Shown here piece by piece: positions 15,245-48,149 of a DNA stretch of 64,000 nt. The translations under genes and the position numbers were made by a program. The notes below the pieces were generated by a model. That model made no database searches. It was not told where the DNA came from and worked only from the letters and a program-made list of their open reading frames with translations. Every line of letters starts with the position of its first letter. The stretch's first letter is position 1. This DNA comes from Anthoceros angustus (Eukaryota > Plantae > Anthocerotophyta). The DNA is taken from positions 1 to 64,000 of the forward strand of contig VJWM01000318.1 in assembly GCA_010909165.1 (NCBI GenBank), in the 5' to 3' direction.

Positions 15245-15249
15245 CTCTT

Positions 15250-18200: not shown

Positions 18201-18490
18201 AGAGTCTTTCATAGAGCATGAGGAATGGGAAGAGGCTTTAGAAGAAACCCAGTAATTCGTGGAGCTTAGAAAGGAGAGGCATGATGGGAATTAAAGCAAG
18301 AGGCTATCATGGCGGGATTTGGTTCTTCTATATGATATGGTTACATGGATTTCCCAGCTTAGGACCGATCGTGGTGGCAGTATGAGAATGGATCCGCAAT
18401 TACGTAGGCCGATGGGGATTTGCTACCAACTAGAGTGAATGGGTGGAAGGTTAGAAGCACCTTGAGATTCGTGTTTGAGGACGCAAACAG
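15250..18490 (+). pseudogene. pol: Deleted internal region of B1: 5' ORF/gag relic, pre-RT, RH tail, linker, integrase ends
   Basis: CCHC-like CRFCGRLDHDRRK near 15880; GKIARISKYLGVEEM joined to FxDEEL near 16230-16300 (RT-RH missing); GGHY..KKILDA joined to EKVTTKKTPYY near 18060. Confidence 0.75.
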
Positions 18491-18503
18491 TGAGGAGGGA
18501 GTA

Positions 18504-21500
18504 TGTGGAACGCAAAAGTTTGGGCAACTGGTTTAAGTGAGTTGTTTTGAACAGTCCGAATGCTTTTGATAGAAATGGTTTGGTGGAAACATGCGAGAAA
18601 TGTTTTTGTTCCGATTGAAGCCGGAGTCAGGATGTCGGGAAGGCAGAGAGGATACTTAGGGAAAAGAAACGGATCAAATGACCTTCTAGTGAGGAGGTAG
18701 GAGACATGTGAAGGTGGAGATGTCCTTGGTGGGAGGTATCCTACCACCGTAGGAGAAACTCCTACCACGGTAGGCTAAGTGGAGAACTCCTACCCCCATA
18801 GGTATGGGTAGGAGAATGTCCCACGTAGGTGGCCCAGCTAGCGTTTGATGACCCAACGTGGGTAGCTCCTACCACGGTCGGAAAAGGGTGAAGGCAATTA
18901 AGCCAAGGAAGTAGCTTGAGGTTCTGCTGCTGATAGGCTTGCAGGCAAAGGCCGATTATTGGGGCCACCACCAAGTTTGAGGGGAAGGCAAAGTAATTTG
19001 CCACACGTGTGGAAGAAGTGAGACATGGGCGGTGCTCACGTTGCTGAGATTTTGCGATGGGAGGACTGCTAGGTAGAGATGTGTGGCAAGGGTTGCTGGG
19101 AAGATGGGCCAAGTGCCGTAATGGTGGAATGCGGGATCTGCTGCGGGCTCTAGGTTGGGAGCTCGGCATGCGAGAGAGGAGCAATCGGTGCAAGGATGGG
19201 AGCGAGGAGCTCATGTTGAGGGTGAGCAGCCACAAGGGTTGCAAGAGGAGGCCATGGCGGTGAGGCACATGGAAGTGCTCAATGGAGTCACGATGGGAGG
19301 ATGGCATGATAGGGCCGTGTGTTGAACTAGGAAAGGCCATGGTAGAGCACTCACGGCTGAATTTGTAGATGGGCTGCAAGATGGAGGTGTGGCCAAACCA
19401 TAGGGCGTGTTGCGGGTGGGGTGCAACATGGTGAAGGGATCACAACGGGTGTGCATCATGATGGCGGAATTTGCGTGGGGCGCAAGTCAAAGTGAAGGGA
19501 GGCCGTTGTGGTGGCGCGAGGAGAAATGGGTAGCAAGGAGGGTTGATACGAGATGTTGTTGAGGCGTGAGGAGTTCACCGGGAATAAGTTCATTTATTCG
19601 TTGAGTGTTGTGTAGCCAATTGGTGTGTTGGACAATGAAGTAAGAACTCCAGTTAAGCGTCCTAGGGTGGATCGATCGAGATGGGGGCCTTTTGTGTGAG
19701 GTGTTATATTTATTGTCACATGAGAACTAATTGGGAGAGTGTTTGGGTGGTGCACCCCTACGGAGTAGGTGTAGGGTGGCGGGCGTAGGCATGGCACTCA
19801 CATGGGGAGGTGCACCCTCAAGGGGTGTAGGCGATAGGTGGCCCTACGAGAATGGAGAAGGTGTAGTGGTAGTGGGCGTGGGCATGGCACTCCCCTCCAT
19901 GAGGGAGGTGCACCCCTACGGGAGGTGGCGGAGGGTACGAGTTAAGGTAATGAGTGGGGTATGGGACTCATAGGTAGGCAGGTCCCTACATGTATGTATG
20001 TGGTGGGGCGGTGCGTAGGGATGGGTAGGGCGGTGCGTGTCCCACATGTGTATGTGTGGGGAACAAGTAGGGAACAAGTAGGGAACAAGTGGGGGCAGAT
20101 GGGTGGGATGGAGGTGGGGGGGGCTCCCCTGTGGTAGGTAGGTAGATAGGTAGGATGAGTGTCTCCCTCAGTAGGAGTGGTGAGGTCTCCCTCGTGGGCA
20201 GGGAGTGGTGACATACTTGGATACTTGGCGGTCAGCAGGAAGTTGCTAAGAGGGCTGCAGGCAAGGTTGTGGATAAATGGATATAAAATAATCACATAAA
20301 TATGTGGGGTGTAGTTGTGGCCATGCAAGCGGGGTGTGAGTGGCACCTAGGAAGCTGCAGTGCGAAGAGCTTGTGCATGCGGGAAAGCTAGGAGCAAGGA
20401 CTTGGTGGGAAGCAGCCCATGTGTGCAAGGAGAAGGAGGTGTGCGTGCATAAGGAGTTGTGTGTGAAGTTTGAAGCCTGTGAAGAACAAGGTGAATTTTT
20501 GTGCCTAGGACCTTGCAAGTGAGGGATTTTGGCGCATAAGGAGGTATATCGTGAGGACATCAAGTTTGAGCTAGGTGGGACTGTGGAGTGAAGAGGAAGT
20601 AAGTGGAAAAGGGCTGAAGTTGCTCTCTTGGATTTTGTGGCGAGTGAAGAAATCTCTTAATTGTGTGTAGAACCGAGGTGACAACTAGGTGGAAACGAGC
20701 ATGTGGGCCCAAGCTTGTCTTGTTTGTGCAGTTATTTTGAAGGTACAAGATGGTGGCCGCACCTAAGAAGCAAGTTGGTTGCTAGGGAGCCAGGGAAGAG
20801 GAATGCTTGAGAAGAGCGCAGGTGGAGGGGCACGGTGGGAGGAGACAGCCCAACACATCCGGTATATGGAAGGCCGTGAGGATGACTCGGAGGAGGAAGA
20901 GGAAGGCATGGAGCAAGATCCGCCACGGGAGACCTTCTTGCAAAGGTGGAGGCGTGGAGGCGGTAGGGCCATAAGAGTTGACCCTACGTCCGTAGGAGGT
21001 GTAGAGGGTGGCCCTACATCCGGATCACCAGCGGTGCGGCATCTGAGGTAATTGAAGGGGTTGGTGGTAGCTTGGTGTGGGCTCATTGCTTGGGGAGACT
21101 TTTCTTTAGAGGAGGACAGGCATTAATGCTTGTCAACCCAGAGGTGTGTTGACTAGCTAGATAGGAATGTTGTGAGCCATTAAGGCTCACATAGGTGAAG
21201 TTGCTAGAATAGAATTTTACCCAAGATGCTTGGATGTCGAACTTAAAAGTCGACAATAGGATACACTAAAATAAGAAGTGAGGCGGTGCAGAGGGCGCGG
21301 AGAGGCTGTATGTGAGGACCTCCCTATAAAGGAGGAGCTTGTGAAGTAAAATTATCGTGTCTTGCGCTCCCCTCATGAGTCCTTTGCTCCTTGTGAAGGA
21401 AGTTCGTGCCGCAAGCTACGTAATGCAGTAGAGAGGGAGTTTGCGCGTCGGAGTGCTTGGCGGGCTCGCTCCGCGCCTCTGCAGTTGCTCCTTGTGAATG

Positions 21501-22393
21501 GTTCTTTGAAATTGCTTTGCTTTGGGTGTGGCGATGCCCAAGGAACTCTCGGCTTGAGGGTAGACTACGGAAAGACTCCCAGGTTCTCACGTGCAAACTC
21601 ATAGCAACCCCCAAGGAAGAACTTGTTGGCTTGTAGGCGGACCCAGGCGATTGTGCCGTAAGGGCGAGCTAGGGCTGAGCTTGAAGTAAGGTTAGATTAG
21701 GAGGATGAGGAGTTGAGTTGAGGTGAGTGTTGAGGAGAATGTGGAGCTGAATGTTGAGTAGAGGAGTAGGTAGAGATTAGAGAGAAGAAGGCCCAAGTCG
21801 AGCCTAAGGGAGGGTCCCAAATGCACCAAACCGAGACCGGAAGCTGGGCTAAGGTCTCAAAATCACGGGGTGGAGAAGTCGCGCCCGTAGGGGTCCCATG
21901 TGCGTGGTGGACCTACCGCCAGGGGCGGGACCTCTGACCAGGATGTCGTTGTAGGTCCGGGAGTGGTGATTCGGAGGCGGTCGGAGTGGGCGTGGCTGCT
22001 GTGAGTTGGTGGTTGAGGTGTGCCAATTGTGGGAAGGCGATGGGAAAGGAATAGTGGACGATCACGGGGTGGTGAAGTCGCGTTGCAACGTGGGGGGTCC
22101 CGTGCGTGGCGTGACCCTCTTGCCGTGGGGTGTGGACCTATAGTCGTGGGGTGTCGCGTAGGTCTAGAAGCGGTGATTGACGGAGCGACATGGTGAGGCG
22201 TGGCTGCTTCATGGAGTGAGTTGAAGTTGCTCCACTGTGTGAGGGAGCTTGGGTGTGAAGAGGCGTGTGGTTTGTGCCTTGGATGTTGGTGACGACAAAC
22301 AAGAGTCTCATGGGACGAAACCTATTGTACTTAGCGACAAGGATAAGTGTGGCCACTAGAGGGTGAATCTCGGAAGCCAGGGGTTTCCTCCCA
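18504..22393 (+). repeat. 3' LTR of B1 (type B)
   Basis: GAGGAGGGAGTA|TGTGGAACGC start; ends GTTTCCTCCCA. Confidence 0.85.
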
Positions 22394-22394
22394 A

Positions 22395-24850
22395 GTGATT
22401 TAGCCCCAGAGATGTAAAAAATAGGAGGAATTGGTATTCTAGTATAAGGAAATTAGGAAACTAACATCACCAAGGAGAAAGGGGCCACGTGGCACACATC
22501 CTGTATAGGTGCAGGATAGCAACAGTTACTTTTTCTAACCCTTGGGTGACTTATAAAAGTGAAGCTGGCAGTGTGTCTGCAGATGAAGGCCATAATCAGA
22601 ACTTGAGGACTCACCACAAAGAAAAGGCGCCTGGGCCATCACCTCAAGCTTCCCAAGGCTCCCATACAGCAACGCGCCTGCATACGCCCGTGCTGAGGAG
22701 GAGAAGGAGGGCGATGAGTCGCTAGCGAGGCGAAATCACGCGCCCAAGAGGAAGAAGGTAGGAAACAGGAGGAAGCAAGAAGGGAGAAGAAGGTTAAAGA
22801 ACCCAACACCCTGCTGCTCGTGGAGGGTGACCCTAGGAGGGTCTGGAGCGTGGCAAGATTGCTAGAAACCTGTGAAGGGCTCCAAATTGCTGTGCGTGGT
22901 GAGTCCTGGGGAATTTCAAGAGTCAGAGGAAAAATCTGCCTCGGGACGCCAAGGTAAGGGACTGGCAAGTATGAGAGCAAGGCGGCCCGAGTGACCTTTG
23001 AGCTGTGCGGCAAGAGCAAACTGAGGAGGAGGATCCAACGCTACTAAGGATAAGAATGCGGTTGAGCCGCAGGAACTGCCAGTGAGGACAGGCGACTCTT
23101 CTAGTCAATTCCTCTGCGGGGAGAAGGGTGACTAATTCCAAGGAGGCCATGACCAAGCCCACCATGACCAAGGCAAGGCAGGTAGCAGCTAAGCGCGAAG
23201 GAGCATCCACCAAGGAGGGCGCGGAGCCAGCAAGAAGTCTGCTACAGGAAAAGGAGGCTTAATTCGGAGGCGTGTGAAATTTGACATGCCATTATTTGGC
23301 TGCATACTGCAGGCCAGCTGTCCTCTATGAGACCTCAGACTTTTGACCAAGCAGAGGAGAATATTCGCCAGAGCAGTAATGGGCGACATTGGTCTTGACA
23401 CCAGGAAGCCTTCTGAATCTGATAGAGGAGTGCTGCTAATTTGCAGCCAGAAAGCGGCATTGAGGAACGGTCACCACGGACAGGGAACACACAGACGGAG
23501 TGGTCGACCTACCCTCGATGAGTTGGAGCCTCTGATGATAGGATGCATACGCGTGACCAGCGTAAGGCGTCGGAGAAGGCGATAGCGCAATCAACGCTGA
23601 TGGAAGGAACGAGTGGAAAGTGCTTTTGCATCACTGGATCTCTCCCAAGGGAGCCTCAATTTATGCAAGGGGCACAAGGCTAAGTCCAAGAATCCGCTGG
23701 CTGGGACGGACCAAAAGTCTTGGACGCCCAAGTGAGATTGTTCATACAAGAATTGTTTTGGGCTTGGTGAGCAATCCAGCGTGTCATTTCAGCACTACCT
23801 TCCATTTTCTATGGAAGATCAGCGGTCAAGGAGTTGGGTCGGATTGGGGTTTATCATGTATGAAGCATACACCTACCACCGGAGAAGTTGGGTTGGAACC
23901 GTCACCATCGCTACGATGAAGATAAAGTTACCAATTGGTCAGGCTATCTTAGCACTTATCTAGTGCATTTAGGAATGGGAAGGATAGAGGGCTACCTACA
24001 AGTAAGGAGTTGGATGATTCCAAGCATCCATGGCAGATATTGCTAGAATAGTACTTACACCAGGAGATTGTGGAGTAGACTTGGTGCTTTAGCGCCTAAA
24101 TCTTTGGAGGTGCCGGGCAAGACCAATTGGGACATTATTGGGCCGAAGGAATCAAAGATAGGCCTGCAGGATGCAGGAGGACTTGCAAGGAGGAAGTTGC
24201 AGGGGGTTTTGAAGCTTGGACCATGGAGGATGTGAGATGGAAGTTGCAGGATAGATCCTACCATGGCGGTGAAGTCATCACAGGGTGGGAGGTATTCCCA
24301 TACGTTGGTTTGTGACCCCTTTGCTCCTCATGTACAAGACCCACGTCTGCATTGTGAACTAGTCGTCACAGTAGAGAGGAAGTAGTCCTACTATGGTCAG
24401 AGCTTGGTAAGGGAACTTGCTCACTACTGCAAGTGCCTAAGCAAGTGCTCCTTGTGGGAATCGAGAATTCTTTGTGGAAATTGCTTTTACTTTGGGTGTG
24501 TGTAAAATGCCCAAGTGACTCTAAACGAGGGTAGTTCTGAGCCCATCATAGGAACTCGGATGTAAGAGGTTCTCCCAAGGAGTCACAAAGGTGTCAAACT
24601 CATAGCCACGTAAGGAAGAACTTCTTTGGAGTGGTGGATGCGGACCCAGGGCGGTTGTGCTTGGTAGAGTGATCGAAAAGCCGATGTGACGAGTTAGACT
24701 AGGAGAGTTAGAATTCTTGAGGAGGATGAGGAGATGAGTAGAGGGGACCTCAAGAGGTGTAGGAAAGTTAGTGGGGGCACCTGGTGAGTATGGGCGAATC
24801 CATAAACCCAGTCTGCACGAGGATGTTATGGAGGATGGAGCAGCTCTGGC
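22395..24850 (+). repeat. Diverged, internally deleted type-A-like LTR fragment
   Basis: Colinear with 25340-27100 (G-box 22484, TATA 22552, ORF motifs FSTTFHFLWKISGQG), then jumps to distal LTR motifs. Confidence 0.7.
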
Positions 24851-25440
24851 CACAGGTGGAGAGTTTGGGTCTTTGCTAGAAATGGTTTGGTGAAGACATG
24901 CAAGGAAATTTTTGCTCCTTTTGAGCGGAGTTGTAGGACCATGTCGGGAAGGCAGAGGATATGCAGGGAAAAGAAACGGGTCAAAACGACCTTTGGTGAG
25001 GAGAAAAGGTAACCTACATGAGTGGTAGGAGGTGTCCTACCACCGTAGAGAAACTCCTACCATGGTGAGAGGGTAGGAGATCCTACCACCGTAGGAGATG
25101 ACCACCGCTAGTGTTTTGATCACCTACCGTGTAGGAATAGCTCCTACCATGGTAGGAGGGTAGGAAGGTATCCTACCGCCGTGGAGTGGTAGGAGAAGGG
25201 AAAACGCCTACCATGGTAGGAGGATGTCCTACCAGTGGGAGATGGGTTTCTAAGGAAGTAGCTTATGTTTTAGGCAGATAGGCTTGCTATATAGAGTCTT
25301 TTAGTGGACTAGATAAATAGGCCAAAATAGGTAATTAAGAAATTAGAGGCTAATTTTCAGTAATTAGAAATTAGAAAATAGGGAAATTGGTATTTTAGTA
25401 TAAGTAAAATTAGGAAACTAACATCAATGGTGGAGAAAGG

Positions 25441-25511
25441 GCCACGTGGCACACATCCAAGGGCAGGATAGAATGGTAGTTACTTTTCTAACCCTTGGGT
25501 GACTTATAAAA
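25441..25511 (+). promoter_or_regulatory. Proximal LTR promoter: G-box GCCACGTGGC plus TATAAAA
   Basis: G-box 25441-25450, TATA 25505-25511; same pair at 22484/22552 and on minus strand at 45042/44981; TATA also at 35396. Confidence 0.55.
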
Positions 25512-25515
25512 GTGG

Positions 25516-28500
25516 TTGCAGTGCTGCGGCTCGAAACTTGAGGAGCGGCCTCCAGAAGGCGCCGCCACACCTCAAGCTGCCCAAGGCCCCCAGCAAGCGC
25601 CCGTACACCAGCCTGTGTTGAGGAGGAGAAGGAGGCGCAAGCTCAGGGAGGAAATCCGGCGCCCAAGAGAGGAAGAAGGAGGAAAAGAGAAGAAGAGAAG
25701 GGAGAAGAAGGTTGGGGCAACACTTGCCAAGCTCGTGAGGGTGCCTAGGAGGGTGGAGCGTGGCAAGATTGCTAGGAAACCGGAAGGGCTCCTAAATTGT
25801 GGCGTGTAAGAGTCCGTGGGAATTTTGTGAGCTTTCTCTTGCAGGAGAAATCGGGGTTTTGGGGGCGCCAAGGTGTAAGGGCTGGAGGAGAGCAAGGGCA
25901 AGGACCTTTGAGCTGTGAGCAAGAGCAAATCGAGGAGGAGAAACGTTTGCAAGGAAGTGAGTCTGCAGGTGCAGGAGAGGCATCACTTTTCTTCAATTTC
26001 GTGCAAGTACTAACCAAGGAGGCCATGACCAAGCCTACCATGACCAAGGGCAAGGAGGTAGTAGCCAAGGAAGGAGCGTCCACCAAGGGAGGTGGCGCAG
26101 GAGCGGGCAAGAGGTCTAAGGCAGGAGGATCAGACCCCGGAGGGTGGAAATTTGACATGCCATTATTTACGTGCTATGCAGGCCAGCTATCCTCTAGAGA
26201 CCTTTCAGACTTTCGACCTTGGGCAGCAGAGGAGAATATTCAGCTAGAGTGGGTGTATGGGCGACATTGGTCTTACACCAACCTTGAATTGATAGAGAGT
26301 GTTTTGCTAATTTGCAGGACGGAGGAATTGGCCGCCTTAGGATAGGCGCAGACGGATCCACGGTGTTGGAAGGAGCATACGCCCGGTATATGGGTAGGAT
26401 AGCGAGGATAGCGGAATCACGTTGATGGAAGGAACGAGGCAAGCGTGCATCAACGGATCTTCCCAAGGAGCCCTTACCCTTATGCAAGGGGCATGAAGGC
26501 TAAGAATCCAAGAACGGTTGGCGACGGACCAAATCTTGGAGCCCAAGTGGAGATTGTTCACAAGAATTGTTTTGGGCTTGGTGAGCAATCCAAGGGTGTC
26601 ATATTTCTACCTTCCTCCATTTTCTATGGAAGATCACTCAAGGAGCGAAGCCGGATTGGGGCTCATCATGTATGAAGCATACACTACCAAAAAGTTCAAA
26701 ACCCAACGTCGGATGAAGACAGGTCAAGGCCATGCTATCTTAGCACTTATCTAGTGCATTTGTGGGAAGTAGAGGGGCTACTCACAAGTAAGGAGTTGGA
26801 TGATTCCAAGCATCCCTTTAACATTGTGTACTTACACCGGGAGAGGGACAGTGCTTGGTGCTGCGCTAAAGGAGGTGCCGGCACCACACAGGACATTATT
26901 CGGAAGGAATCCCTCCGAAAGATAGGCCGGAGGATGTGCGGGAGGACTTGCAAGGAGAAGTTGTAGGGGATTTGAAGTTTGGACCGCAGGATGCGGAGAT
27001 GGAAGGTAGGATAGATCCTACCATGGGAATCCGCTGCGAGGGTGGGAGGTGTTCCACGTGGTTTGGGACCCCTTCGTCCTCTCATGACAAGGCCTACGGT
27101 GGCGAATTAGTCCTACCACGGTGGAAGTAGTCCCACTGGTGAGCACCTCCTACCACGGTAGGAGGAAAGGAAGTCACGGTTTGGAAGCTCCCAAGGGAGA
27201 TAAGAAGGCAACCGGCCCTAGGTGGGCGGCGGATGGAGTCACGGTGGGAGGGTTGCCCACCAAGTGATGAGCGGGAGCTCATCATAGGGAAGCAAGGGAT
27301 GTAAGATCCCATGAGCAAGGCAAAGGCCTTGAGTCTCCCGGAGGTAAGAAAGGAGACTTAGACATGTTGGAGGAGATCTGCGCAGGAGATGTTCAAGGTA
27401 GATGGAGCCGCCAAGAGGAGAGTTGAATTCTTGAAGACGGAGGCGGAAGACAAGGACCTACCAAGCAAGGGAAATTGCGGGTAGGCGGCGGAAACCCAGT
27501 GAGGAGGATGTTATGAGGATGGAAGCTCAAGTGGAGCACTTGGAAAGAGTCTTGAAACAAGGCTAAGGCAAACAACATATTCGGAGAACAAGGCTCTTAC
27601 CAAGCAATTGGCAGCTCGAGAGGAGAAGGTGGAGCAACTTGCTCACATGGTGCGCATGGGAAAAGAAGGCGGAAGACAAGCAAGTCTGCTAATGGAGGAA
27701 AGGTCAAGACGAGAGCAATCTGCAGCAAATGAGGGCAAGGCAAGTAGGCACATGAGCGGTCATAGCCACAGTGTGAAGATTAGTGACATGGAAAAGGAGC
27801 TGGGAGAAATCCGAGGCTGGAATTGAAGGAAGAAGAGGTAGTTGTCTAAGAGGAGGAGAAGGTTGTGCTCACGACAACAAGAGGAAGGAAGTTGTTGAGG
27901 AGTTGCCGATCAAGGGTGAGGGTCAAGAATTCGAGCCCGTTAGTACTCGAGGTACATCTTCCGCTCTCGCAAGAGAAGGACTTTTCGTGGATTGTCGAGC
28001 TCTTCTAGCTTGATTTTGTCGTCGTAGAGGAGGAAGGCAAGAGGGTGAGATTTGGCAAAGGAGAAGTTGGGGTATGAAATCTAACGCTAATATTTCGCAA
28101 GGTCTTGATCAATTATTGCCCAACTTGCTGCCCTTTCAACCTTGCTTGTTAGGAGGACGAGGCGCTTGTGTGCCCAAGTCTGTATAGTACATCCCGCTTG
28201 GTGCAGCATTTGTTTACGACAGGTGGAATTCTGGGAGGTGTGCCCACGGTTTTGTGGACGCCCTTGACCATGATAGGAGGAAGCAGGTGGTGGGAGTCAC
28301 ACCAACAGCCCGCCAGCAGATGTGAGATTTGGGGAGAAGAACGGACACATTTTGTCCAAAGATTGGAAATGGAAGCAGAAGTCCAGCGGAGAGTGCACAA
28401 CTCCCTAGGAGGATAGGGAGTTGGAGGAAGAAATGGCAAAGGAGAAAGGCCGTCATGAGGCGTGGTGCAGCATATGTTGGCGGTGAGGAGGCAGATTTGG

Positions 28501-29083
28501 TGATTATGCCCTACAAGAGATTGATCCGCTGCAGAATGAGAGGACGGAGAATGTGGCTCTCCATGTCAAGACCGGTGAGCTGGCCTTGAGCGAGATGCTT
28601 ACAAAAGCAAGTGTGAGCATGGAGTATGGCTTGAGGATTACAGAATTGGAGATGGCACAACAACGATTTGCAGCCCATCTTCACAACAAGGTGCTCAAGG
28701 CCACTAACGAGTTGTTGCGACTTCTGAGAGGAGGATGTTGGGACCTCATGATGATGATAGGGAGGCCCTCATGCAAGTCCAACCGGAAGCCTTAGACTTG
28801 GAGAGTGTCCCAAGCACAGGGTGAAGAAACTTGCACTGTGGAGAAGCAAGTGAAGCGGGAGAAGCACGGTGGAGAATCACCCGGGAAGGGGGAAGAAGAA
28901 AAACGACCCGGTAGGAACTCCTACCGTGGTAGGAGGAGTTCCTACCGTGGTAGGAGGGACTCCTACCGTGGTAGGAGAAGGTCCTACCATGGTAGGAGGG
29001 CCAGCAGATTCAAAGGTGCTAGCATGGATTTGACAAGGGAGGCGAGTACCTTGGCCCTTGCAGAAAGAAGGAAGAGGGGTTGA
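25516..29083 (+). pseudogene. LTR-embedded ORF of type-A LTR (basic N-terminus, plant-transposon-protein-like core, coiled coil)
   Basis: Chain of overlapping ORF fragments: KFDMPLF..IQLEWVYGRHWSYTNLELIE..KWRLFTRIVLGLVSNPRVSYF..HLWEVEGLLTSKELDDSKHPF..coiled coil. Confidence 0.65.
28917..28999 (+). repeat. 4 x ~21 bp tandem repeat, each containing the palindrome CCTACC-NN-GGTAGG
   Basis: actcctaccgtggtaggagg-type units; read as SYRGRR repeats; similar blocks at 1420-1495 and 38245-38320. Confidence 0.85.
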
Positions 29084-30386
29084 TCTTGCAGAATGGAGCA
29101 AGAATCACAAGGAGAAGACCAACCTCCTAACATGGGTGCAGCAAGGAGCTCACTTGCTCCACAAGTGAGAGGAAGAGGAGAAGGCGAGGATGAGCCGGTG
29201 GCTAAGAGAGCCCGGCTATTTTATTGGAGGAAGGAACTCAAGATAGGCATCAAGATAAGGAAGGGATTCATAAGAAGTCCTTAAATTAGCTTGAAGACAT
29301 GGGCAAGATGCCACTTGGGAAGACTTTTCTTTAGAGGAGGATGCATTAATGCTTGTCAGAGAGTGTGTTGACTAGCTAGATAGGAATGTTGTGAGCCATT
29401 AAGGCTCACATAGGTGAATTTAGAATAGAATTTTACCCAAGATGCTTGGATGTCGAACTTAAAGTCAATAGGATACACTAAAATAAGGAGTAAGGCGTGC
29501 GGGGAGGCGCCGAGGCTGTGAGGACCTCCCTATAAAAGGAGGGGAGCTTGTGAAGTAAAATTATCGTGTCTTGCGCTCCCATCCTCCCGAGTCCTTCACT
29601 TTGTGCAGAATTTCGCCAAGCCAATGTCTCGTAGAGAGGGAGAACGCGCGGTCGGAGTCTGGGTGGAGGCTTGCTCTTTGCAGGCCCCAGCTCCCCTTGT
29701 GAATGGTTGTTGTGAATTGTTTTGCTTTGAGTGTGTGGCGATGCTCAAGGAACTCTCGGCTTGAGGGTAGACTAGGAAAGACTCTGGAGGTTCTCTGCGG
29801 TACAAACCACATAGCAACCGCCCAAGGAAGAACTCGTTAATTTCGACGGACCCAGGCATTGTGCCGTAAGGGCGAGTTGGAATTAATGAGCCAGCAATTG
29901 GTGTTAGAGTAGGAGATTGTGGAGGAAGGAAGGGTAGATGAGTAGAGAAGAAGGGCGTTGTTGATTGAGAGAGTTGTGAGGAGGATTAGAGTGTAGGAAA
30001 AGCGGAAGGCCAGTGCGAGCCTAAGGGACGAATCCCTGCAAGTAAGAGGGCGCTCCCTGGAGAAGAGTGTCTTAGGAGTAGGGACGGTTGCGGTGTGGGT
30101 CGGGGGTCCCGGCATGGGCACCTTCGTTAAGACGTAACTGCAATTGTGTGGTGTCGTTGTAGGTTGAGGTTTGGTGAGTTCTGGCGGCAGCGTAGCTGCA
30201 GGGAGCGTGAGAGGGCGCCTTGCTTGTTTAGAAGGCTGAGGTAGTGTGTAGCTGCGGTGGTGTGATTCTCAAGATTCGGCTTCCCCAAGTCTCATGGGAC
30301 GCCAACCCAGCGTCTGAACGACGGTGGGATAAGTGTGGCCGCTAGAGGGGAATCTCGGGAGTGCCCCGGGTTTTCCTCCCACATTT

Positions 30387-30402
30387 TGGCCGTTGCGGGA
30401 CT
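30387..30402 (+). other. Degenerate tRNA-Asp PBS of A1
   Basis: TGGCCGTTGCGGGACT after CA-TTT. Confidence 0.8.
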
Positions 30403-30629
30403 TGTGGGTCCATTGAAATTTTGAGATTTTCGTTGCTAGCTTGCGATGAGCTGAGAGATCTTGTAAGGAGGTAGGCGGGGTCTAGGAAGAGCCTACACGT
30501 CCTGGAACCCGTGCGTTGTGAAGGAGGAGCTCCACGCCTCCCGTGTGATTTTGTGTTCTGCAGCAAGAATGGCGCATGGCGGGTTGGCTGATTTTTCTTT
30601 AACAACCGTGTTTTGGAGGCTATGAGGAT

Positions 30630-33600
30630 GCTTGCAGATGTCTAGCGGAGGGGAGGGAGAGGAGAAAACCATAGGAGGTCACCCCACACATCGCAAGAGA
30701 TCTAAGAGCTGCAAGAAGAAATCAATGGAGGGGAGGAAAAGCGGTGGTTGCACGCTCGGAGGAGGAAGAGCTAAGGGGCTTGAGGAGGAGGCCGTTTTGC
30801 CCTTGCCTACAAGGGGAGCCAAGTGATCCAGGAAAACGCTTCGGAGAAGGGACGTCGAAATCACCGGCAGTGAAACAAAGGAGGTGGTTGAAGAGGAGTT
30901 GGTATGTGAAGAGGAGGAGGAAGCACCGCTTTGAGCGATTCAAGTTCAGCTACCAGCAGGCCTTCTCAACGCTGGACCTTCGTGGTGGTGATCTAGCTCA
31001 ACTTCCAAGCAGTGAAGGTGGGGTGAGCGTGGGGAATTGCGTGGTCTCAAGATCTTGCGGGCGCTGATAGAATCACGCTCACTCACATCTTGGGACGCAC
31101 ACCTAGGGAGACACCATCCCGTCCCAATCTTTTGTGCAGACACCCCTTGAGAACTTTGGTTGGAGAATTTACTGCAGGAGAGGAAGGGAGTGTGAGTTCG
31201 CCTAGCTCATCTGGACCAAGCAACATGAGTGGAGCAGGAGTAGGAGGGATTTGCTGTTTGGATAGTTGTGTGTTGAGGGGTGTGAGCGTGCTTCGAAGTC
31301 TAGTCGGGGAGGAGGAAGTAATTTTAGGAGTTGAGAGGAGATCACCCCGTCTTTTCGCAAGGGATTTGTGAACTGAATGGAGAAATCATGTGTGAAGAAA
31401 GCTTAGTTGCTGCTGATGTGCAAAGGAAGAAGCGGAGGAGAGCTCTTGGGAGGAAGCTACATGTGCTAACATCTTCAAGGGTTCCGTTGAGGAAGAAGAG
31501 GTAGTTGTCTAAGAGCAAGAGGAGGTTGTGCTCACGGACAGCGAGAGGAAGGAGGTTGTTGCCGAGGAGTTCGATCAAGGGTGAGGGTCAAGAATCCGAG
31601 CCTGTTAATAATTTCCAAGGTACATCTTCCGTTCTTGCAAGAGGAGGACTTTTTGGCGTGGATTGTTGAGCTCTTCTAGCTCGAGTTGGTCGTCGAAGAG
31701 GAGGAAGGCAAGAGGGTGAGATTTGGCGGTGGAGTTGGGGTACGAGATCTAATGGTGAGCTTTGCAAGGTCTTGATCATTACGCCCATCTTGCTGCCCTT
31801 TCAACCTTGCTTGTTAGAGGGAGGCGCTTGTGTGCCCAAGTCTGTATACATCCCGCTTGCAGCATTTGTTCGCCCGACAGGGGAAGTTTCTTGGGAGGTG
31901 TGCCCATTTTGTGGACGCCTCAACCATGAGTGGAGGAAGTGGAGGTGGTGGAAGTCACACCCGCAATATGTGAGATTTGGGGAGAAGCAACAAAGATGAT
32001 GAGGCTTTTGTGCAAACTTTGAACATGTGACTCATGCGAATTTGGAAGTCTCAATGTGGATTGTCTCCAAATTTTCCTAGAGTACTTGAGGTCATAGTGT
32101 GGTATAGTCACACGATGGAGCTGCATCACCATTGGATTGGGATGATTTGAGAGCTGTATCTTTGAACCGGTTTTGTGGCTTAAGCTATGCACATCATCAC
32201 GTTGGTCCGGTTGAGGACTCTGCGAAGGAAGAGGAGGAGTCTTGTATGATTACATAGAGAGAGAGTACCACCACGGCCACGAAGGATGTAGCCTTCAAAA
32301 GCAAGGCCTATGGTATGACCTTTCTTGATAAAGGTTGGGAAAGCAGTGTAGGAAGGAGTTAGAGGAACACATGTAGATCCATGTGCCATAGAAAAATTAG
32401 AGCTAGAATGTGGTAAGGTGGTGAAGATTTCTAAGTGTAGAGGAGATGGTAGAGTTTAAGAAGGTGCGGGGAAGAGCATGAATGCAGGTTTCATTTTCGA
32501 GGAGAGCGACTTGAGGCCCGATGATTTCCGACGAGGAGTTGGTTGCCACGGCCTGGGTCAAGGGGAGGACGTGAGCATGTTGTAGACGGCCTAAGTTGAT
32601 CAGCAAGCCTTGCTGCCAGCAGAGAGGTCAAATGAGCAAGAAGGAGCGCGTTGTGAAAGGCGGCAGGACAATCTGGAAATCCGAGAGGATAAAGGGCGCC
32701 AGTATGGGCGCGAGGAGGAGGCTGGAATGCTCCTCAAGGGTGAGCAGTCGAGGGCTGCAAGTGGAGGCCAGGTTGGCAAAGAAAAGAAAACGGAGCGTGA
32801 GCGTGAGGCGCCCACTTGGCGAGGTCATGGCCGGGCGCCATGGGGCCGCGAGGAGAGAAGGCCCTAGGGAGGTGGACACGCGGTGAGGAGGAGATGCATC
32901 CCATGAAAAGTTTGAGCGGCGGGAGAAGTTGGCGATTCATGGGAAATCACTCAAAATTGGCCATGGAGTGCAGCAAGGCGAGGAGGTCGCCATGGGAGCG
33001 AGCTGGACCTGGACACGAGGCTAGACCAGCAGAATGGAAGAAATCGAACTTGGAGGAGGAGCATGCGCAGGTCGAACTTGCATGGACAAAGCGGGAGAAA
33101 CGGTTTTGTGAATGATGCATGCCGTGCTGCTGTGTGGCGAGCTAGCAGGAGGCCACGATGGTGGCAAGGATGATGGAGAAATTGAAGAAATCTTGGAGGA
33201 AGGAGAAGTGGCACACAAAATGGTGTCGAGGCTACTGTCTTTGAGCCAGGAGCGGATGGCTTTATGGTGATGTGTATGAAGGAGGATTGTGGAGAAATCA
33301 CACCTCAAGATATGCTTTTGCAAGAAGGAGAGTCGACCAATTCACGGTGAAGAATTGCGCAGCTGTAAGGAGATTTGCTAGGCGCGATCTAGTCAGAGTC
33401 TAGAAGGTCGGAGATGGTGTACCAGCGATGATGCAATCCACCAGGCACATACTGTCGGCATGCGCGAGAAGCTAGTTTGTGGGCCGAGTTGAAGGCGGGG
33501 TTGTGGCCGCCAACATCCACTGGTGAACAAGATGGAAACAAGCAAGGCGTGGCTGGCCTAGAGGCTAAGAGCAAGTCTTGCTAGAAAGCCAAGGATCCGT

Positions 33601-34715
33601 GAAGGGAGTTTTGTGCAGGAGATGTTGACCTAATGAATTGGGATTCGAGCGAAAGGTGAGCATCAAGAGGGCTGCAAGTGGAGGCCAGCAAGTTGGCAAA
33701 GGGAGAAGAAACGGAGAATGGAGGACTCATGGCGTGTGGGAAGAGCTGATGGAGCCTGAGTAGGGGCGGCTCGAGGATGGTGTGCATGGAAAGGAGCTGA
33801 AGAATGATCAAGCTTGTGACAGAAAGGAATTGGGAATTCATGAAGGAAGCCACTTTTTGTGGAGGTACGGCGTCGAGAGTATTGTCGTCCAGCTAGCTTG
33901 GGCCAGAGCCTAAGGTTACATGGCATAGCAAGAAGAAAGTTGGTGCATGAGCGTGGATACAGGCCGTGATGCAAGGCAGGATCCACGGGTCATAATGTAC
34001 ATGGGGTGCCACCAGTCCGTGGTGGAGGAGGTAGGAAGTGGCGAAGTGCATGGGAAGAGGAGGTTAGAACGTGAAGGACTCCCATGTCCACGTTGAAGGT
34101 GAGGAAATTTCTTGGAGCACGGAATCATCGATAGTTTGTCTAGGGAAGGGCACTGTCTTTCTTAGAGCCTTATTGTTAAGAGATGGGGTCTTATAAGCTT
34201 GGTTTGATGAGAAGATGTTGTTTGAAGGAAGGAAGCTTCTCTTCTTAAAAAGCATGCGGAAAGGGTTGGAGGCCATTATTCTAATCACGTGAAGAAGATC
34301 TTAGATGGGGATTGTGGGCTTCTAATGGAGAAAGTGACTATATTTAACGAATGATGCCATTGAATTTAGTACCTACCATAGAATCATGGAGGATGAGCGA
34401 GATGAGGAGAGTCGGAAGTTAGACTAGATCTTTCATGAGCATGAGGAACGAGGGAAGATGCTTTAGAAGAAACTCAGAGCTTAGAAAGGATAGGCATGAT
34501 GGGAAGTTGAGGCAAGAAGCTATCATGGGGATTTGGTTCTTCTATATGATAGCGATATATGGACTTTTGGAAGCTTAGGTTGAGATGGATGGGACCTTAC
34601 GAGGTGGTGGCATGAGAATGGATCCCAACCACGTGCGGATGGGGATTTCGCAACTAGAGTGAATGGGTGGAAGGTTAAGAAGTACCTTGATGAGGAATGT
34701 TTGCGAGGACGCAAA
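30630..34715 (+). pseudogene. pol: Deleted internal region of A1: 5' ORF, gag-core relic, pre-RT, RH tail, linker, integrase ends
   Basis: CPFCGRLNHE near 31907; LQIF..WYS..WDDLRAV near 32060-32180; RT-RH missing near 32475; integrase core missing near 34315; ends GWKVKKY. Confidence 0.75.
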
Positions 34716-34727
34716 CAGAGAGGAGTA

Positions 34728-37700
34728 TGTGGGCAAAAGTTTGCAAGCATGAGTTGCTTGACAGCACTCTTTGCTAGAAATGGTTTGGTGAAGACATGCA
34801 AGGAAATTTTTGCTCCTTTTGAGCGGGAGTTGTAGGACCATGTCGGGAAGGCAGAGAGGATATGCAGGAAAAGAAACGGGTCAAAACGACCTGGTGAGAG
34901 AAAAGGTAACCTACATGAGTGGTAGGAGGTGTCCTACCGTGAGAAACTCCTACCATGGTAGGAGGGAGAGATCCTACCACCGTGGGAGGATGACCTGCTA
35001 GTGTTTTGATCACCTACCTAGGAATAGCTCCTACCATGGTAGGAGAGGTAGGAAGGTATCCTACAGAGGAGTAACTCCTACCGTGGTAGGAGAGGAACGC
35101 CTACCATGGTAGGAGGATGTCCTACCACGTAGGAGATGGGTTTCTAAGGAAAGTAGCTTATGTTTTAGGCAGGATAGGCTTGCTATATAGAGTCTTTTAG
35201 TGGACTAGATAAATAGGCCAAAATAGGTAATTAAGAAATTAGAGGCTAATTTTCAATAATTAGAAATTAGAAAATAGGGAAATGGTATTTTAGTATAAGG
35301 AATTAGGAAACTAACATCAATGGTGAGAAAGGGCCGTGGCACACATCCAAGGGCAGGATAGAATGGTAGTTACTTTTTCTAACCCTTGGGTGACTTATAA
35401 AAGTGGTGCAGTGCTGGGAGGCCTAAACTTGAAGAGCCTCACAGAAGGCGCCGCCACCTCAAGCTGCCCAAGGCCCCATACAGCAACGCCCCATACACGC
35501 CGGAGGAGGAGAAGGAGGCGCAAGCTCGGCAAGGAGGAAATCGAGCGCCCAAGAGAGGAAGAAGGAGGAAAAAGAAGAAGAGAAGGAGAAGAAGGTTGGG
35601 GCAACCCAACACTTGCCAAGCTCGTGAGGGTGCCTAGGAGGGTGGAGTGGCAAGATTGCTAGGAAACCGTGCGAAGGGCTCCTAAATTGCGTGGCAAGTG
35701 TAAGAGTCCGGGGAGAATTTTGTGAGCTTTCTCTTGCAGAAATCGGGGTTTTGGGCGCCAAGGTGTAAGGGCAGGAGGAGAGCAAGGGCAAGGACCTTTG
35801 AGCTGAGCAGAGCAAATCAAGGGAGGAGGCTTTGCAAGGATAAGAAGTGGCAGCGCAGGAATTGCAGGAGAGGCATCACTTTTCTTCAATTTCGTGCAAG
35901 TACCCCAAGGAGGCCATGACCAAATGACCAAGGGCAAGGAGGTAGTAGCTAAGGAAGGAGCGTCCACCAAGGAGGTGGCGCGAGGAGGCAAGAGGTCTAA
36001 GGCGGAGGATCGGACCCGAGGGTGGAAATTTGACATGCCTTATTTACGTGCTATGTGGCTATCCTCTAGAGACCTTTGACTTTACCTTGGGCAGCGGAGA
36101 ATATTCAGCTAGAGTGGGTGTATGGGCGACATTGGTCTTACACCAACCTTGAATTGATAGAGAGTGTTTTGCGCAGCGGAAGAGGAATTGGCCTTACCGG
36201 ATAAAGCATGCGGCGGATCCACGGTGTTGGGCCCGCATGCGTATATGGCGGAGGATGGCGAGGATAGCGGAATCAGCTGATGGAAGGAACGAGCGGAGGC
36301 AAGCGTGCATCAACGCGGATCTTCCCAAGGAGCCTTACCCTTATGCAAGGGGCATGAAGGCTAAGTCCAAGAACTTGGGACGGACCAAATCTTGGAGCCC
36401 AAGTGGAGATTGTTCACAAGAATTGTTTTGGGCTTGGTGAGCAATCCAAGGGTGTCATATTTCAGCACTACCTTCCTCCATTTTCTATGGAAGATCACTC
36501 AAGGAGCGGCGGATTGGGGCTCATCATGTAAAGCATACACCTACCACCGGGAAAAGTTCAAACCCAACGTCGGATGAAGATCCAGGTATGCTATCTTAGC
36601 ACTTATCTAGTGCATTTGTGGGAAGTAGAGGGCTACTCACAAGTAAGGAGTTGGATGATTCCAAGCATCCCTTTAACATTGTGTACTTACGGAGAGGGAG
36701 TGCTTGGTGCTTTGCGGCTAAAGGAGGTGCCGGCACCAGACATTATTGCTGGAAGGAATCCTCCGAAGATAGGCCGAGGATGCAGGAGGACTTGCAAGGA
36801 GAAGTTGTAGGGGATTTGAAGTTTGGACCGCAGGAGGATGCGGAGATGGAAGGTAGGATAGATCCTACCATGGCGGGAATCCTGCGAGGGTGGGAGGTGT
36901 TCCAGTGGTTTGGGACCCCTTCGTCCTCTCATGACAAGACCTACATGAATTAGTCCTACCACGGTAGGGAAGTAGTCCTTGAGCACCTCCTACCACGGTA
37001 GGAGGGAAAGGAAGTCACGGTTTGGAAGCTCCCAAGAGGAGATAAGAAGGCAACCGCCCCTAGGTGGGCGAGCGGATGGAGTCACGGTGGGAGGAGTTGC
37101 CCACCAAGTGATGAGCGGGAGCTCATCATAGGGAAGCAAGGGATGTAAGATCCCATGAGCAAGGCAAAGGCCTTGAGTCTCCCGGAGGTAAGAAAGGAGA
37201 CTTAGACATGTTGGAGGAGATGCGCATAGGGAGATGTTCAAGAAGGTATAGGCGCCAAGAGGAGAGTTGAATTCTTGAAGACGGAGGCGGAAGACAAGGA
37301 CCTACCAAGCAAGGGAAATTGCGGGTAGCGGCGGAAACCCAATGGCGGGAGGATGTTATGAGGATGGAAGCTCAAGTGGAGCACTTGGAAAAGTCTTGAG
37401 ACAAGGCAAGAGGCAAACAACATATTCGGAGAACAAGGCTCTTACCAAGCAATTGGCAGCTCGAGAGGAGAAGGTGGAGCAACTTGCTCACATGGTGCAC
37501 ATGGGAAAAGAAGACAAGCAAGTGCTGCTAATGGAGGAAAGGTCAAGACGAGAGCAATCTCGCAGAATGAGACAGGGCAAGTAGGCGCATGAGCGGGTCA
37601 TAGCCACAGTGAAGATTAGTGACATGGAAAAGGAGCTGGGAGAAATCCGGAGGCTGGAATTGAAGGAAGAAGAGCTGGAAGAACGGACACATTTTGTCCA

Positions 37701-39718
37701 AAGATTGGAAATGGAACGAGAAGTCCGAGAATGCACAACTCCCTAGGAGGATAGGGGAGTTGGAGGAAGAAATGGCAAAGGAGAAAGGCCGTCATGAGGG
37801 TGCGACATATGTTGGCGGTGAGGGAGCGTAGATTTCGGGCTGATTATGCCTACAAGAGATTGATCCGCCAACCGCAGAATGAGAGGACGGAGAATGTGGC
37901 TCTCCATGTCAAGACCGGTGAGCTGGCCTTGGAGCGAGATGCTTACAAAAGCAAGTGTGAGCATGGAGTATGGCTTGAGGATTACGAAGAATTGAGATGG
38001 CGATTTGCAGCCCATCTTCACAACAAGGTGCTCAAGGCCACTAACGAGTTGTTGCGACTTGCCGAAGGAGGATGTTGGGACCTCATGACGATGATAGGGA
38101 GGCCCTCATGCAAGTCCAACCGAAGCCTTAGACTTGGAGAGTGTCCCAAGCGGTGAAGAAACTTCGCACTGTGGAGAAGCAAGTGAAGCGGGAAGGTGGA
38201 GAGAATCACCCGTGAAGGGGTAAGGAAGAAGAAACGACCTGTAACTCCTACCGTGGTAGGAGGAGTTCCTACCGTGGTAGGAGGGACTCCTACCGTAGGG
38301 AGAAGGTCCTACCATGGTAGGAGGAAGAAGCAGCGGATTCAAAGGCGCTAGCATGGATTTGACGGCAAGGGCGAGTACCTTGGCCCTTGCGAAAGAAGGA
38401 AGAGGGGTTGATCTTGCAGAATGGAGCAAGAATCACAAGGAGAAGACCAACCTCCTAACATGGGTGGGAGGCGGAGCTCACTTGCTCCACAAGTGAGAGG
38501 AAGAGGAGAAGCGAGGATGAGCCATGGCTAAGAGAGCCCGGCTATTTTATTGGAGGAAGGAACTCAAGATAGGCATCAAGATAAGGAAGGGATTCATAAG
38601 AAGTCCTTAAATTAGCTTGAAGACATGGGGCAAGATGCCACTTGGGAAGACTTTTCTTTAGAGGAGGCATTAATGCTTGTCACCCGAGAGTGTGTTGACT
38701 AGCTAGATAGGAATGTTGACAGGAGCCATTAAGGCTCACATAGGTGAATTTTGCTAGAATAGAATTTTACCCAAGATGCTTGGATGTCAGAACTTAAATT
38801 CTGACAATAGGATACACTAAAATAAGGAGTAAGGCAGTGCCAGGGGGAGGCTGTATGTGAGGACCTCCCTATAAAAGGAGGGAGCTTGTGAAGTAAAATT
38901 ATCGTGTCTTGCGCTCCCATCCTCCTGAGTCCTTCACTTTGTGCAGGAATTTCGTGCCGGCTGCAAGCCAACGCAGGTCCGGTAGAGAGGAGAACGCCGG
39001 GAGTCGGGTGGAGGCTTGCTCTTTGCGCCACGCGCTCCCTTGTGAATGGTTGTTGTGAATTGTTTTGCTTTGAGTGTGTCGGCTCAAGGAACTCTCGGCT
39101 TGAGGGTAGACTGGGGAAAGACTCTGGAGGTTCTCACGTGCAAACCACATAGCAACCGCCCAAGGAAGAACTCGTTAATTTGGACGGACCCAGCATTGTT
39201 GTATAAGGGCGAGTTGGAATTAATGAGCCAAGAATTGGTGTTAGAGTAGGAGATTGTGGAGGAAGGAAGGGTAGATGAGTAGAGAAGAAGAGGGCGTTGT
39301 TGATTGAGAGTTGTGAGGAGGATTAGAGTGTAGGAAAAACTAAGGCCAGGAGCCTAAGGGACGAATCCCAAATGCAAGTAAGAGGGCTCCCCTGTGGAGA
39401 AGAGTGTCTTAGGAGTAGGGACGTTGCGGTGTGGGTCAGGGGTCCGGCGCCCGTGATAGACACCTTCATTGGGCGTAACGCAATTGTGTGTGTCGTTGTA
39501 GGTTGAGGTTTGGTGAGTTCTGTGAGCGATGCAGGCGAGCTGCTGTAGAGGGAGCGTGAGAGGCGCCTTGCTTGTTTAGAAGGCCGAGGTAGTGTGTAGC
39601 AGTAGTGACGGATTCTCAAGATTATGCTCCCCAAGTCTCATGGGACCCGAAACCCAGCGTTGGCATTTGATGGAAGTGTGGCCAGGGGTGAATCTCGGGA
39701 GCCCAGGTCTCCTCCACC
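34728..39718 (+). repeat. 3' LTR of A1 (type A)
   Basis: Hairpin TGTTTGCGAGGACGCAAACA, PPT, then TGTGG at 34728; ends CTCCTCCAC near 39717. Confidence 0.85.
35400..38233 (+). pseudogene. LTR-embedded ORF, copy in the 3' LTR of A1
   Basis: MEPKWRLFTRIVLGLVSNPRVSYFSTTFLHFLWKITQGA... and the coiled-coil ORF 37794-38156. Confidence 0.65.
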
Positions 39719-41189
39719 ACCCTGAGGGACATTGGAGAAGTGGAGAGTCTTCCAGTGGAGAAGATTGGCCAGAAGTCGGACAAAGTGCTGTGGTCTCCTG
39801 AGGCAAGTGTAATCTTCTTTCAATTCCAGACCTGCGATTGTTTTTCTTTCTGTGATTTTCGGAGTAGTCTTAGGAGCTTGCGGGAGTAGGGGTTATTGTT
39901 TAGAAATTTGCTGTGTGTGCTCTAATTGCTTTCCCGTGGAGTTGTTCACACAAGTCTCCCATGGGAATGAGCAACTCCACCTTGCGAGGCCAGCTTGGGT
40001 ATTAATGACAGAGGGGAAATCCAGGCGTTTCCCACAACAGCCATCCCAAAGTGGGTGTGAGCCTGCACTCCTTGATGTTCCTCGCCTGGGCAGGTCAAAT
40101 CACGGCCTTGGGTCCAACCACCGAGAGAAAAGAGCGAGATTGTCAAGAGTCTAACTCCTCCGGGGGTGGGCAGGAGGATCCTGTGGCTCACGTTTGCGAT
40201 CACCCTCATGCGGCACTGAGTCCACCCTCATCCCTTGGTGGAGCAAGCGATTTTGCAATCGGCCGGTTGCCTCAAACCTCGCTTTGTAACTCCTTCCGTG
40301 CCACGATCTCCCACTAAGGGAGGAAGGAGACTTGACATGTTGGTCTTATGAGGGAACAGAGGCGTGGAAAGGCCACCTTCATGGCCAAAGCAGGATCTAG
40401 TGGTGTGATTCCCGTAAGTTCCTATCCAAGCAGGACTTGTTCGAGGACATGCAGGTCTCAAGGCACCCCTTGTGCATAAACGTTCCCAGGTAGGGTGCTC
40501 GTAAGTCAATGCCTGTGGGAGTGGACACACTCTTCCACCTTGCCATCAATTTAGGATGTTGGAGAATCCTGAGACCCTGGGCATTGGGAGATTGACACTG
40601 GAGAAAACCACAAAGGGTACGAGATAAGCTGCACTAAACAAATGCACCAAGGGTGAGAGCTAGAAATCCTTGGCCGAGGCTACAATCATGACCGGGGTAA
40701 AACAAGATGTAAGGATCAAACCCATGACGTTGATTCCTCACGAGAGCGCCTCCATCTTGAGGCGAGCTCCAAGACCCTTTGCGGTGGTCAGCTTGGAAGG
40801 CTCCAAGGGATTACATCCGCGGCGCGAGGATGGTTGATGGCCATGAGTTCTCCACAGCCAGGGATCCGGAAGATATGGCGATGAGGCGCAATCATGTAAA
40901 CATTCGCTAGTATTTGGGCACTTGAGAGGTATATGCGTTCAACATAGGTTGTAATCATGTTTGTACTTGGAGACATTGTTGCTCTGGAGGAAGATGCATC
41001 CACAGATTTAGGACCCCTCCTGCTCTGTGGGCCTTAAATCTCTGCCAGCTCTAATGCTCCACCCATCATTGAACTCCTCATGGCACTCATGTCTAATCTA
41101 CCATGGCCTACAATTGCCATCAATATGCTCTTGATTAGCTGCCCTTTGTGCGCACAAAGTGCGTGAATCTTTCAGGGAGTTCTTTGTGG

Positions 41190-44925: not shown

Positions 44926-45719
44926 GCCTTCTGTGAGGCCGCCTCCTCAAGTTTAGGTTGTGGCCTCCTGCACTGACCACTTTTATAAGTCACCCAAGGG
45001 TTAGAAAAGTAACTACCATTCTATCCTGCCCTTGGATGTGTGCCACGTGGCCCTCTCCCACCATTGATGTTAGTTTCCTAATTTCCTTATACTAAAATAC
45101 CAATTTCCCTATTTTTCTAATTTCTAATTCTGAAAATTAGCCTCTAATTTCTTAATTACCTATTTTGGCCTATTTATCTAGTCCACTAAAGACTCTATAT
45201 ATAGCAAGCCTATCCGCCTAAAACATAAGCTACTTTCCTTAGAAACCTATCTCCTACCGTGGTAGGACATCCTCCTACCATGGTAGGCGTTTTCCCTTTC
45301 TCCTACCACGGTAGGAGTTTCTCCTGTGGTGGATACCTTCCTACCCTCTCCTACCATGGTAGGAGCTATTCACCGGTAGGTGATCAAAACACTAGCGGTC
45401 ATCTCCTCGGTGGTAGGATCTCTCTACCCTCGTCTACCATGGTAGGAGTTTCTCCTACGGTAGGACACCTACCACTCATGTAGGTTACCTTTTCTCCTCA
45501 CCGTGGTCGTTTTGACCCGTTTCTTTTCCTGCATATCCTCTGCCTTCCGACATGGTCCTACAACTCCCGCTCAAAAGGAGCAAAAATTTCCTTGCATGTC
45601 TTCACCAAACCATTTCTAGCAAAGAGTGTGGGCTGCAAAGCAACTCATTTAAGCTTGTTGCCCAAACTTTTGCGTTCCACATACTCCCTCCTCATTGTTG
45701 CGTCCTCGCAAACAACAGA

Positions 45720-47990: not shown

Positions 47991-48149
47991 TCACCGAAAA
48001 GCCTGTCTTGCGGTCCATTCGAAAGGTGTATCCTTCTTGGTCAATTGGGTCAAAAGGCGCCTTCTTAGCAAAATCCTTGATGAACCTCTGTAATATCCTA
48101 GTCCTACAAAGGCACGCACTTTGCCTCACCGTTTGGGGTGCGTCCATCT

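Follow-up and report, generated by a model that had tools for sequence, protein, structure and literature searches.

Element A1 and the quality of the sequence

The 64,000 nt of Anthoceros angustus DNA analysed here (assembly GCA_010909165.1, contig VJWM01000318.1, positions 1 to 64,000; the window) constitute a dense nest of Ty3/gypsy elements with ~50% GC. One of these, designated A1, is bounded by long terminal repeats (LTRs) of about 5 kb. With a probability of roughly three in four, LTRs of this size are genuine in this Athila-like Ty3/gypsy family, and within their U3 a stretch of ~800-850 codons on the plus strand is coding and conserved. It is likely an intact accessory gene, which reverse transcription would place at each end of a new insertion. 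LTR copies and families in the window are referred to by letter (A to F, and C2). The parts of A1 are as follows.

24856..30383, plus strand: 5′ LTR; the first ~40 nt are gone, terminates CCCACA
26025..28900, plus strand: LTR gene, 5′ copy; a frameshifted reading, split by an insertion
27837..28336, plus strand: insert in the 5′ LTR, a 500-bp piece of a B-type internal region, absent from the 3′ LTR
30384..30402, plus strand: T-rich spacer and damaged Athila-type primer binding site (PBS), with a clean counterpart after 15222
30403..34714, plus strand: internal region with pol remnants, ~4.3 kb
34715..34727, plus strand: polypurine tract (PPT), immediately 3′ of the integrase end
34728..39718, plus strand: 3′ LTR; 4991 nt as read, ~5.4-5.5 kb when scaled for lost bases
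35916..38240, plus strand: LTR gene, 3′ copy; the N-terminus is basic and is followed by a conserved helical domain (to ~36700), a linker that varies and a coiled-coil-like C-terminal part

A1 has the structure that defines an LTR element, with direct repeats at its ends (24870-30383 and 34768-39715), a PBS behind the first and a PPT ahead of the second. Compared with a minus-strand relative at 44920-49324, A1 lacks reverse transcriptase (RT) and RNase H (the join is near 32444/32489) and most of the integrase core, and retains the integrase C-terminus (~34350-34700); the internal part is, judged by this comparison, a deletion derivative. The 500-bp insert differs by 0.8% substitutions from 15466-15976 versus 8.1% from A1's own 31490-31987. 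The insert and the lost start of the 5′ LTR would both be explained either by repair after insertion or by misassembly. A low-complexity linker of 700 nt with an internal repeat separates RNase H from integrase in the minus-strand relative (46900-47600), is also present at 32489-33173, and is longer than its counterpart in an element at 3000-8600.

Among copies in the window, small indels far outnumber substitutions; the two A1 LTRs differ by 1.6-2.9% substitutions versus ~4.6 gap openings per 100 alignment columns. Short-read contigs from three public runs, X1 to X3, exceed the window in length by 8-11% for matching spans, with extra letters at many sites, and measured against them the window is short of ~9% of its bases. 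The window is therefore read as a noisy long-read assembly, in which frame breaks are poor evidence of decay and profile searches lose sensitivity; a Pfam scan missed the evident RT and integrase at 3000-10000. As the X1-X3 contigs are longer and contain letters missing from the window, most frameshifts in the LTR gene are probably assembly errors.

LTR boundaries

The sequence-only reading of this DNA proposed that a PPT and TGTGG directly follow the integrase end at 10004, 18504 and 34728, and at 45681 on the minus strand, and all four sites bear this out. Likeness of LTR edges and ends was scored as z, with upstream comparisons made over the 80 nt before each start, and the upstream regions of these four starts are mutually alike (z 14-21). 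In all four copies, the sole integrase-adjacent PPT precedes the TGTGG edge and, as PPT and integrase end adjoin the LTR start, there is no room for an additional internal open reading frame (ORF). Five further LTR-type starts, at 11287, 24855/6, 43447, minus 50947 and 58813, have unrelated DNA upstream, the highest z being 3.9 (A1 5′ versus A1 3′ LTR), and the LTR edge is thus common to four PPT-preceded and five PPT-free starts. It had been claimed that TGTGG itself abuts unrelated DNA at 43447, 58813 and minus 50947; the unrelated flanks hold at these sites and the motif only at 43447, the remaining PPT-free starts reading TTGG, GGTGG, AGTGG and CGTGG. LTR ends of the form CCACA plus PBS, expected 3.9-5 kb further on, were found as CCCACA plus PBS at 30383 and 15222 and not in the PPT-preceded LTRs, two of which end without a PBS (22395 and 39718) and two of which are truncated (10004 and minus 45681). 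The LTR ends form imperfect inverted repeats.

A1 is located within the U5 of an older LTR, designated D, the two parts of which rejoin at 24855|39719.

22408..24855, plus strand: older LTR D, left part; N-domain of the gene, then U5, interrupted by A1
39719..40036, plus strand: older LTR D, right part; remaining U5, terminates TCCCACA

The sequence at 24346-24855 aligns with family C U5 (z 22), and 39719-40036 carries on the D U5, with z 9.2 against the C end and 8.4 against the A1 5′ LTR end; scores against the other LTR ends (seven ends in all) are 3.0-4.9, and the maximum of 49 control scores is 4.0. The overlap at the joint is uncertain by some 30-40 nt. As the host U5 halves rejoin around A1, the inserted unit must have held the entire 5′ repeat. 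A search was made for the layout that would contradict giant LTRs, a 5′ LTR of only ~1 kb with the ORF present once; the older LTR was found to be split exactly around 24856-39718, and no distal module in the window starts behind a PPT or an integrase end. A relic PPT and TG start ahead of the distal module was considered and is not supported, the purine run at that point having no LTR-type edge behind it in any copy. Read depth falls from ~2000-3000 to 70-230 at the PPT and climbs to ~1170 in the integrase end. None of the 7 loose ends at the LTR edge that were listed, of 14, is at 45681.

A coding region within the LTR

One and the same coding region is present on the plus strand of each A1 LTR, confirming that the gene is duplicated with the LTR. 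Single-frame pieces on the plus strand match across families A, C, D and E, from the ATG to a common C-terminal stretch, and A, C, C2, D and E agree in the position of the ATG, which has a similar context in each. As read in the 3′ LTR, the gene spans ~775 codons, or ~850 when scaled for lost bases. The ~1000-codon ORF reported from sequence alone was not recovered, and that count probably included the 500-bp insertion in the 5′ LTR.

Coding was evaluated from the spacing of mismatches in gap-free blocks relative to permutations; many regions were compared and the p values are uncorrected. In the N-domain, mismatches have a periodicity of three in four pairs of copies (p=0.012, 0.027, 0.072 and 0.002; pooled p=0.0055, the C2/D pair having yielded no blocks). 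Read on the plus strand, the pooled mismatches comprise 54 synonymous and 68 non-synonymous changes and no stops, versus 27, 91 and 8, respectively, on the minus strand. Integrase regions evaluated as controls gave p=0.018, 0.0075 and 0.06, the LTR 5′ end, distal U3 and U5 gave p=0.17-0.51, and in the A1 internal region the test did not show coding (p=0.40-0.83). A cruder first pass of the test agreed with the N-domain result. Among the near-identical A copies, substitutions amount to 1.0-1.4% in the gene region versus 2.1-3.9% in U5, and the few mismatches (12-14) are themselves periodic (p=0.03 and 0.04).

A 4405-nt contig from X3 is colinear with 34898-38904, and so over the gene region, with no intron-sized joint; X3 is only guessed to be RNA. 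In X1, depth bins range from 853 to 2452 in the gene, 787 to 3055 in the rest of the LTR and 65 to 900 in the internal region, and the gene bins are closer to the other LTR bins than to the internal bins, depth not being a measure of copy number. Every A-type copy has arrays of a short palindromic motif ahead of the gene, within it and behind it (34900-35130, 36860-37000, 38240-38330 and their counterparts); these are possible protein-binding sites.

Other LTR families and copies

The remaining copies that bear on the LTR gene, and the gene-free family B, are located as follows.

1..2901, plus strand: third A-type LTR, 3′ part; holds the C-terminal half of the gene
10004..11286, plus strand: LTR E, internally deleted, behind a PPT; gene start 10489, core 10566-10910, C-terminal end kept
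11287..22395, plus strand: family B element, with 3.9-kb LTRs at 11287-15222 and 18504-22395
43447..44920, plus strand: C-type LTR start with gene start (ATG 44353); the 3′ end is at 49306-49921
44920..49324, minus strand: autonomous-type relative with RT, RNase H, linker, integrase, PPT and an A-type LTR start at 45681, truncated at 44920
58813..63696, plus strand: lone family C LTR, 65-70% identical to A, with a homologous gene from ATG 59775 to ~61990

The LTR at 58813-63696 had been cited as a solo LTR in which the gene survives. The gene is present, but the LTR has no target site duplication (TSD) and on its right adjoins internal sequence of an A-type LTR; in the absence of a TSD it is best described as a lone LTR of unclear origin, not a proven solo LTR. 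The gene remnant in LTR E resembles either a short natural version or a double deletion.

The gene is not, as had been supposed, a component of every giant LTR. Family B LTRs agree with A over the initial 300 nt, in the distal module and over the terminal 100 nt, differ in the middle, and have no match to any part of the LTR gene. In place of the gene and the first of the TATA-like boxes described below, the B LTR middle (11700-13900 and 18900-21080) is a strongly G-skewed sequence of 2.3 kb, pieces of which are also present at 49939-50139 and 58332-58400; coding was not shown there by the codon test (p=0.09).

A separate gag-pol element with an Athila-type PBS, damaged at 2999, occupies 2999-8600, and its end at 8566-8604 resembles an A-group PPT and LTR start, with no LTR behind. 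On the minus strand, 54000-58300 is a retroelement with an aspartic protease (PF13650, E=7.8e-6). Frameshifted pieces at ~55150-55750 look by eye like what we take to be C5 cytosine methyltransferase motifs; Pfam and PDB gave no confirmation. Methyltransferases have been reported in retrotransposons of charophytes and dinoflagellates (PMC5890265).

Putative promoters and mechanism

Two TATA-like boxes are apparent within the LTR.

25499..25512, plus strand: TATA-like box 1, ~520 nt upstream of the ATG; the motif recurs at 35390, 22546 and minus 44993; putative promoter of the gene
29526..29539, plus strand: TATA-like box 2, also at 38865, 14169 and 62870; likely the promoter of the genomic RNA

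Box 2, which A, B and C have in common ~850 nt short of the LTR 3′ end, would drive the genomic RNA, and box 1 could drive the gene separately from it, from either LTR or from lone LTRs. The X3 contig stops ~30 nt past box 2 and leaves U5 uncovered; this stop was not used as evidence for an RNA end because RNA ends cannot be read from contigs and because another stretch that X3 should match was missing from it.

During reverse transcription, the RNA downstream of the PPT becomes U3 and is copied to both ends. If plus-strand DNA synthesis starts from the PPT that adjoins the integrase end, the accessory zone would form part of U3; what lies between pol and the 3′ LTR in other Athila and Tat elements would here be U3, and each new insertion would receive two gene copies. 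Non-autonomous copies such as A1 could keep the gene and borrow RT and integrase from relatives like the minus-strand element at 44920-49324. A more speculative scheme, to which we give well under an even chance, is that in a clade of plant-type gypsy elements a complete accessory gene of 850 codons came to lie in U3 together with a promoter of its own, that the LTR middle is a swappable cassette (occupied by the gene in A, C, D and E and by something else in B), that every insertion thereby gains two copies, and that lone LTRs may go on making a trans-acting, anti-silencing protein of a new family after gag-pol is lost.

The predicted protein

All protein searches with the LTR gene used short pieces as queries. 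No homologue of the product was found among clustered proteins (longer proteins only), in a phmmer search of 1.84 billion representatives or among PDB sequences, and two tries with the ESM Atlas, with a best value of 0.87 and none, gave no match that was accepted. Pfam was blank, as it was for the evident RT and integrase, and so decides nothing; likewise, no profile match was obtained to the accessory domains PF20167, PF03078, PF10536 and PF04195, a scan blunted by the noisy DNA. The predicted fold of a 115-residue core is all helical with a poor pLDDT of 51.7, and Foldseek returned nothing for it at E<=0.001. By eye, the motif spacing in this core may resemble the C-terminal part of PF20167-type plant transposon proteins, the family expected from sequence alone but unconfirmed here. 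A DNA pattern scan of metagenomes gave 0 matches to the LTR gene. A search for related loci yielded 1 locus from 427 candidate stretches, rejected as an off-frame chance match in a bacterial locus, the ORFs of which look like type VII secretion genes.

The N-terminus is basic in A, C and C2, and in six copies no 19-residue window in any plus frame exceeds a Kyte-Doolittle value of 1.16, although frameshifts could hide one. These features fit nuclear accessory proteins, as discussed in PMC7264820, better than they fit an env protein. The likeliest role for the product is that of a nuclear helper acting in trans, perhaps to counter silencing or to target chromatin, a suggestion drawn from sequence character that we hold at somewhat less than an even chance.

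Alternative explanations

Several observations weigh against a functional gene in genuine giant LTRs. No intact frame is present, the longest plus-strand stop-free frame in either A1 LTR being 189 residues; periodicity is weaker in the C-terminal part (p=0.16, 0.054, 0.03 and 0.0015) and absent from the middle linker (p=0.46). Family B spreads with giant, gene-free LTRs, so the gene is dispensable in cis; box 1 was found only in the A-type copies and D, not in C, C2, E, B or F; and the absence of a homologue leaves function unanchored. At the boundaries, the start of the A1 5′ LTR has suffered damage, and the DNA upstream of it is weakly like the PPT side of 34728. No clean TSD of 4-5 bp was found at A1, B, C or C2; at A1, where the termini are damaged, there are one-mismatch candidates only, expected by chance in 43% of cases. 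If the giant LTRs are real, the gene could be a non-functional passenger: an accessory ORF that was once internal, ended up in U3 when the PPT shifted, is now decaying and was under selection only in the past. The broken frames, the gene-free B LTRs and the large deletions in E and D would accord with this, and the periodicity could stem from old divergence between families. The short-read contigs, however, restore length and many of the missing letters, and even the near-identical A copies have fewer substitutions in the gene than in U5, with periodic mismatches; we consider decay since capture unlikely.

Much less probable is that the true LTR is the ~1-kb distal module and that the giant LTR results from a tandem or nested arrangement, or from a long-read misassembly that repeats the 3′ internal region with its ORF. 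The module (from LTR position ~3914) is indeed common to A, B and C, with differing middles, the assembly is noisy, and the junctions have no independent DNA confirmation, X1 having no contig over the 3′ flank past 39948. Nevertheless, the host U5 is continuous around the whole unit, the sole integrase-adjacent PPT precedes the TGTGG edge and five unrelated flanks stop at a TGTGG-type edge, by which this arrangement is already largely refuted. An env-like membrane or movement protein has a similarly slight chance of being the product. The term env-like is applied to sense ORFs that follow pol in Athila-type elements, and membrane segments occur in some of them (PMC7264820); against this stand the basic N-terminus and the hydropathy values given above, within the limit set by frameshifts. 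An accessory gene duplicated with genuine LTRs of ~5 kb is the interpretation carried forward here.

Comparison with known systems

The carrier appears Athila-like, within the non-chromovirus OTA clade of Ty3/gypsy, as judged by the PBS and not by a tree. As described for Athila in bioRxiv 10.64898/2026.03.20.713144, a PBS, TGGCGCCGTTGCC (tRNA-Asp/Asn), follows a T-rich spacer (clean after 15222, damaged at 30384 and 2999), the domain order is RT, RNase H and integrase, and there are non-autonomous copies that lack all three. Athila LTRs are, however, typically searched for at 1-2 kb in that source, in contrast to ~5 kb here, and the extra ORF of such elements is internal, between pol and the 3′ LTR (PMC7264820), whereas here it is behind the PPT and within the repeat. 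No motif of a Tat-type aRH was recognized by eye in the broken frames of the 700-nt linker, and the RNase H profile PF17917 matched with E=0.0076 only. Non-chromoviruses are described as having LTRs of up to ~5 kb and extra ORFs, which are internal, up- or downstream of the polyprotein (PMC6317226).

ORFs in LTRs have been documented in MMTV, lentiviruses and foamy virus (PMC2664473); there, as here, coding sequence occupies the 5′ portion of the LTR, so that each LTR copy brings its own. The LTRs of MMTV and HML are, however, ~1.3 kb or less, the hosts are vertebrates and no protein kinship has been shown; the gene described here is several times longer and lies wholly within a 5-kb LTR.

The LTRs of the barley Sukkula large retrotransposon derivatives (LARDs) are 4-5 kb. 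LARDs are, like A1, large non-autonomous LTR derivatives with intact termini (PMC8268840), but they are described as non-coding, whereas here the LTR is coding, pol remnants are kept and an autonomous-type relative with the same LTR is present in the window. Retrosat2, RIRE3 and RIRE8 combine LTRs of >3 kb with an extra ORF, ORF0, of unknown function (PMC3485330), and among these and the comparable Grande gene23 and Retand antisense ORFs there is precedent for a nuclear accessory protein with its own promoter (PMC7264820). ORF0, however, precedes gag-pol, whereas gene23 runs antisense within the 3′ internal region, and an element has only one copy of either. The literature searched contained no retrotransposon with a gene inside its LTR, with subscription journals mostly outside the search and the supplementary eORF tables of PMC6317226 a place where such cases could lie. 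The present elements contribute a large LTR gene in an Athila-like carrier, boundaries for which there is direct evidence, and a sister family that lacks the gene.

Reviews place the extra ORFs of retrotransposons in the internal region and treat LTRs as regulatory DNA. Elements of the kind described here would escape annotation pipelines in which LTR length is limited to 1-2 kb, and a PPT positioned ahead of an accessory gene provides a simple route to giant LTRs. A gene within the LTR has its dose doubled with each insertion and outlives the LTR-LTR recombination that removes the rest of the element, and lone LTRs that seem dead could consequently stay protein-coding. The presence in one genome of gene-bearing A and C and gene-free B LTRs offers a natural comparison for the function of plant accessory ORFs.

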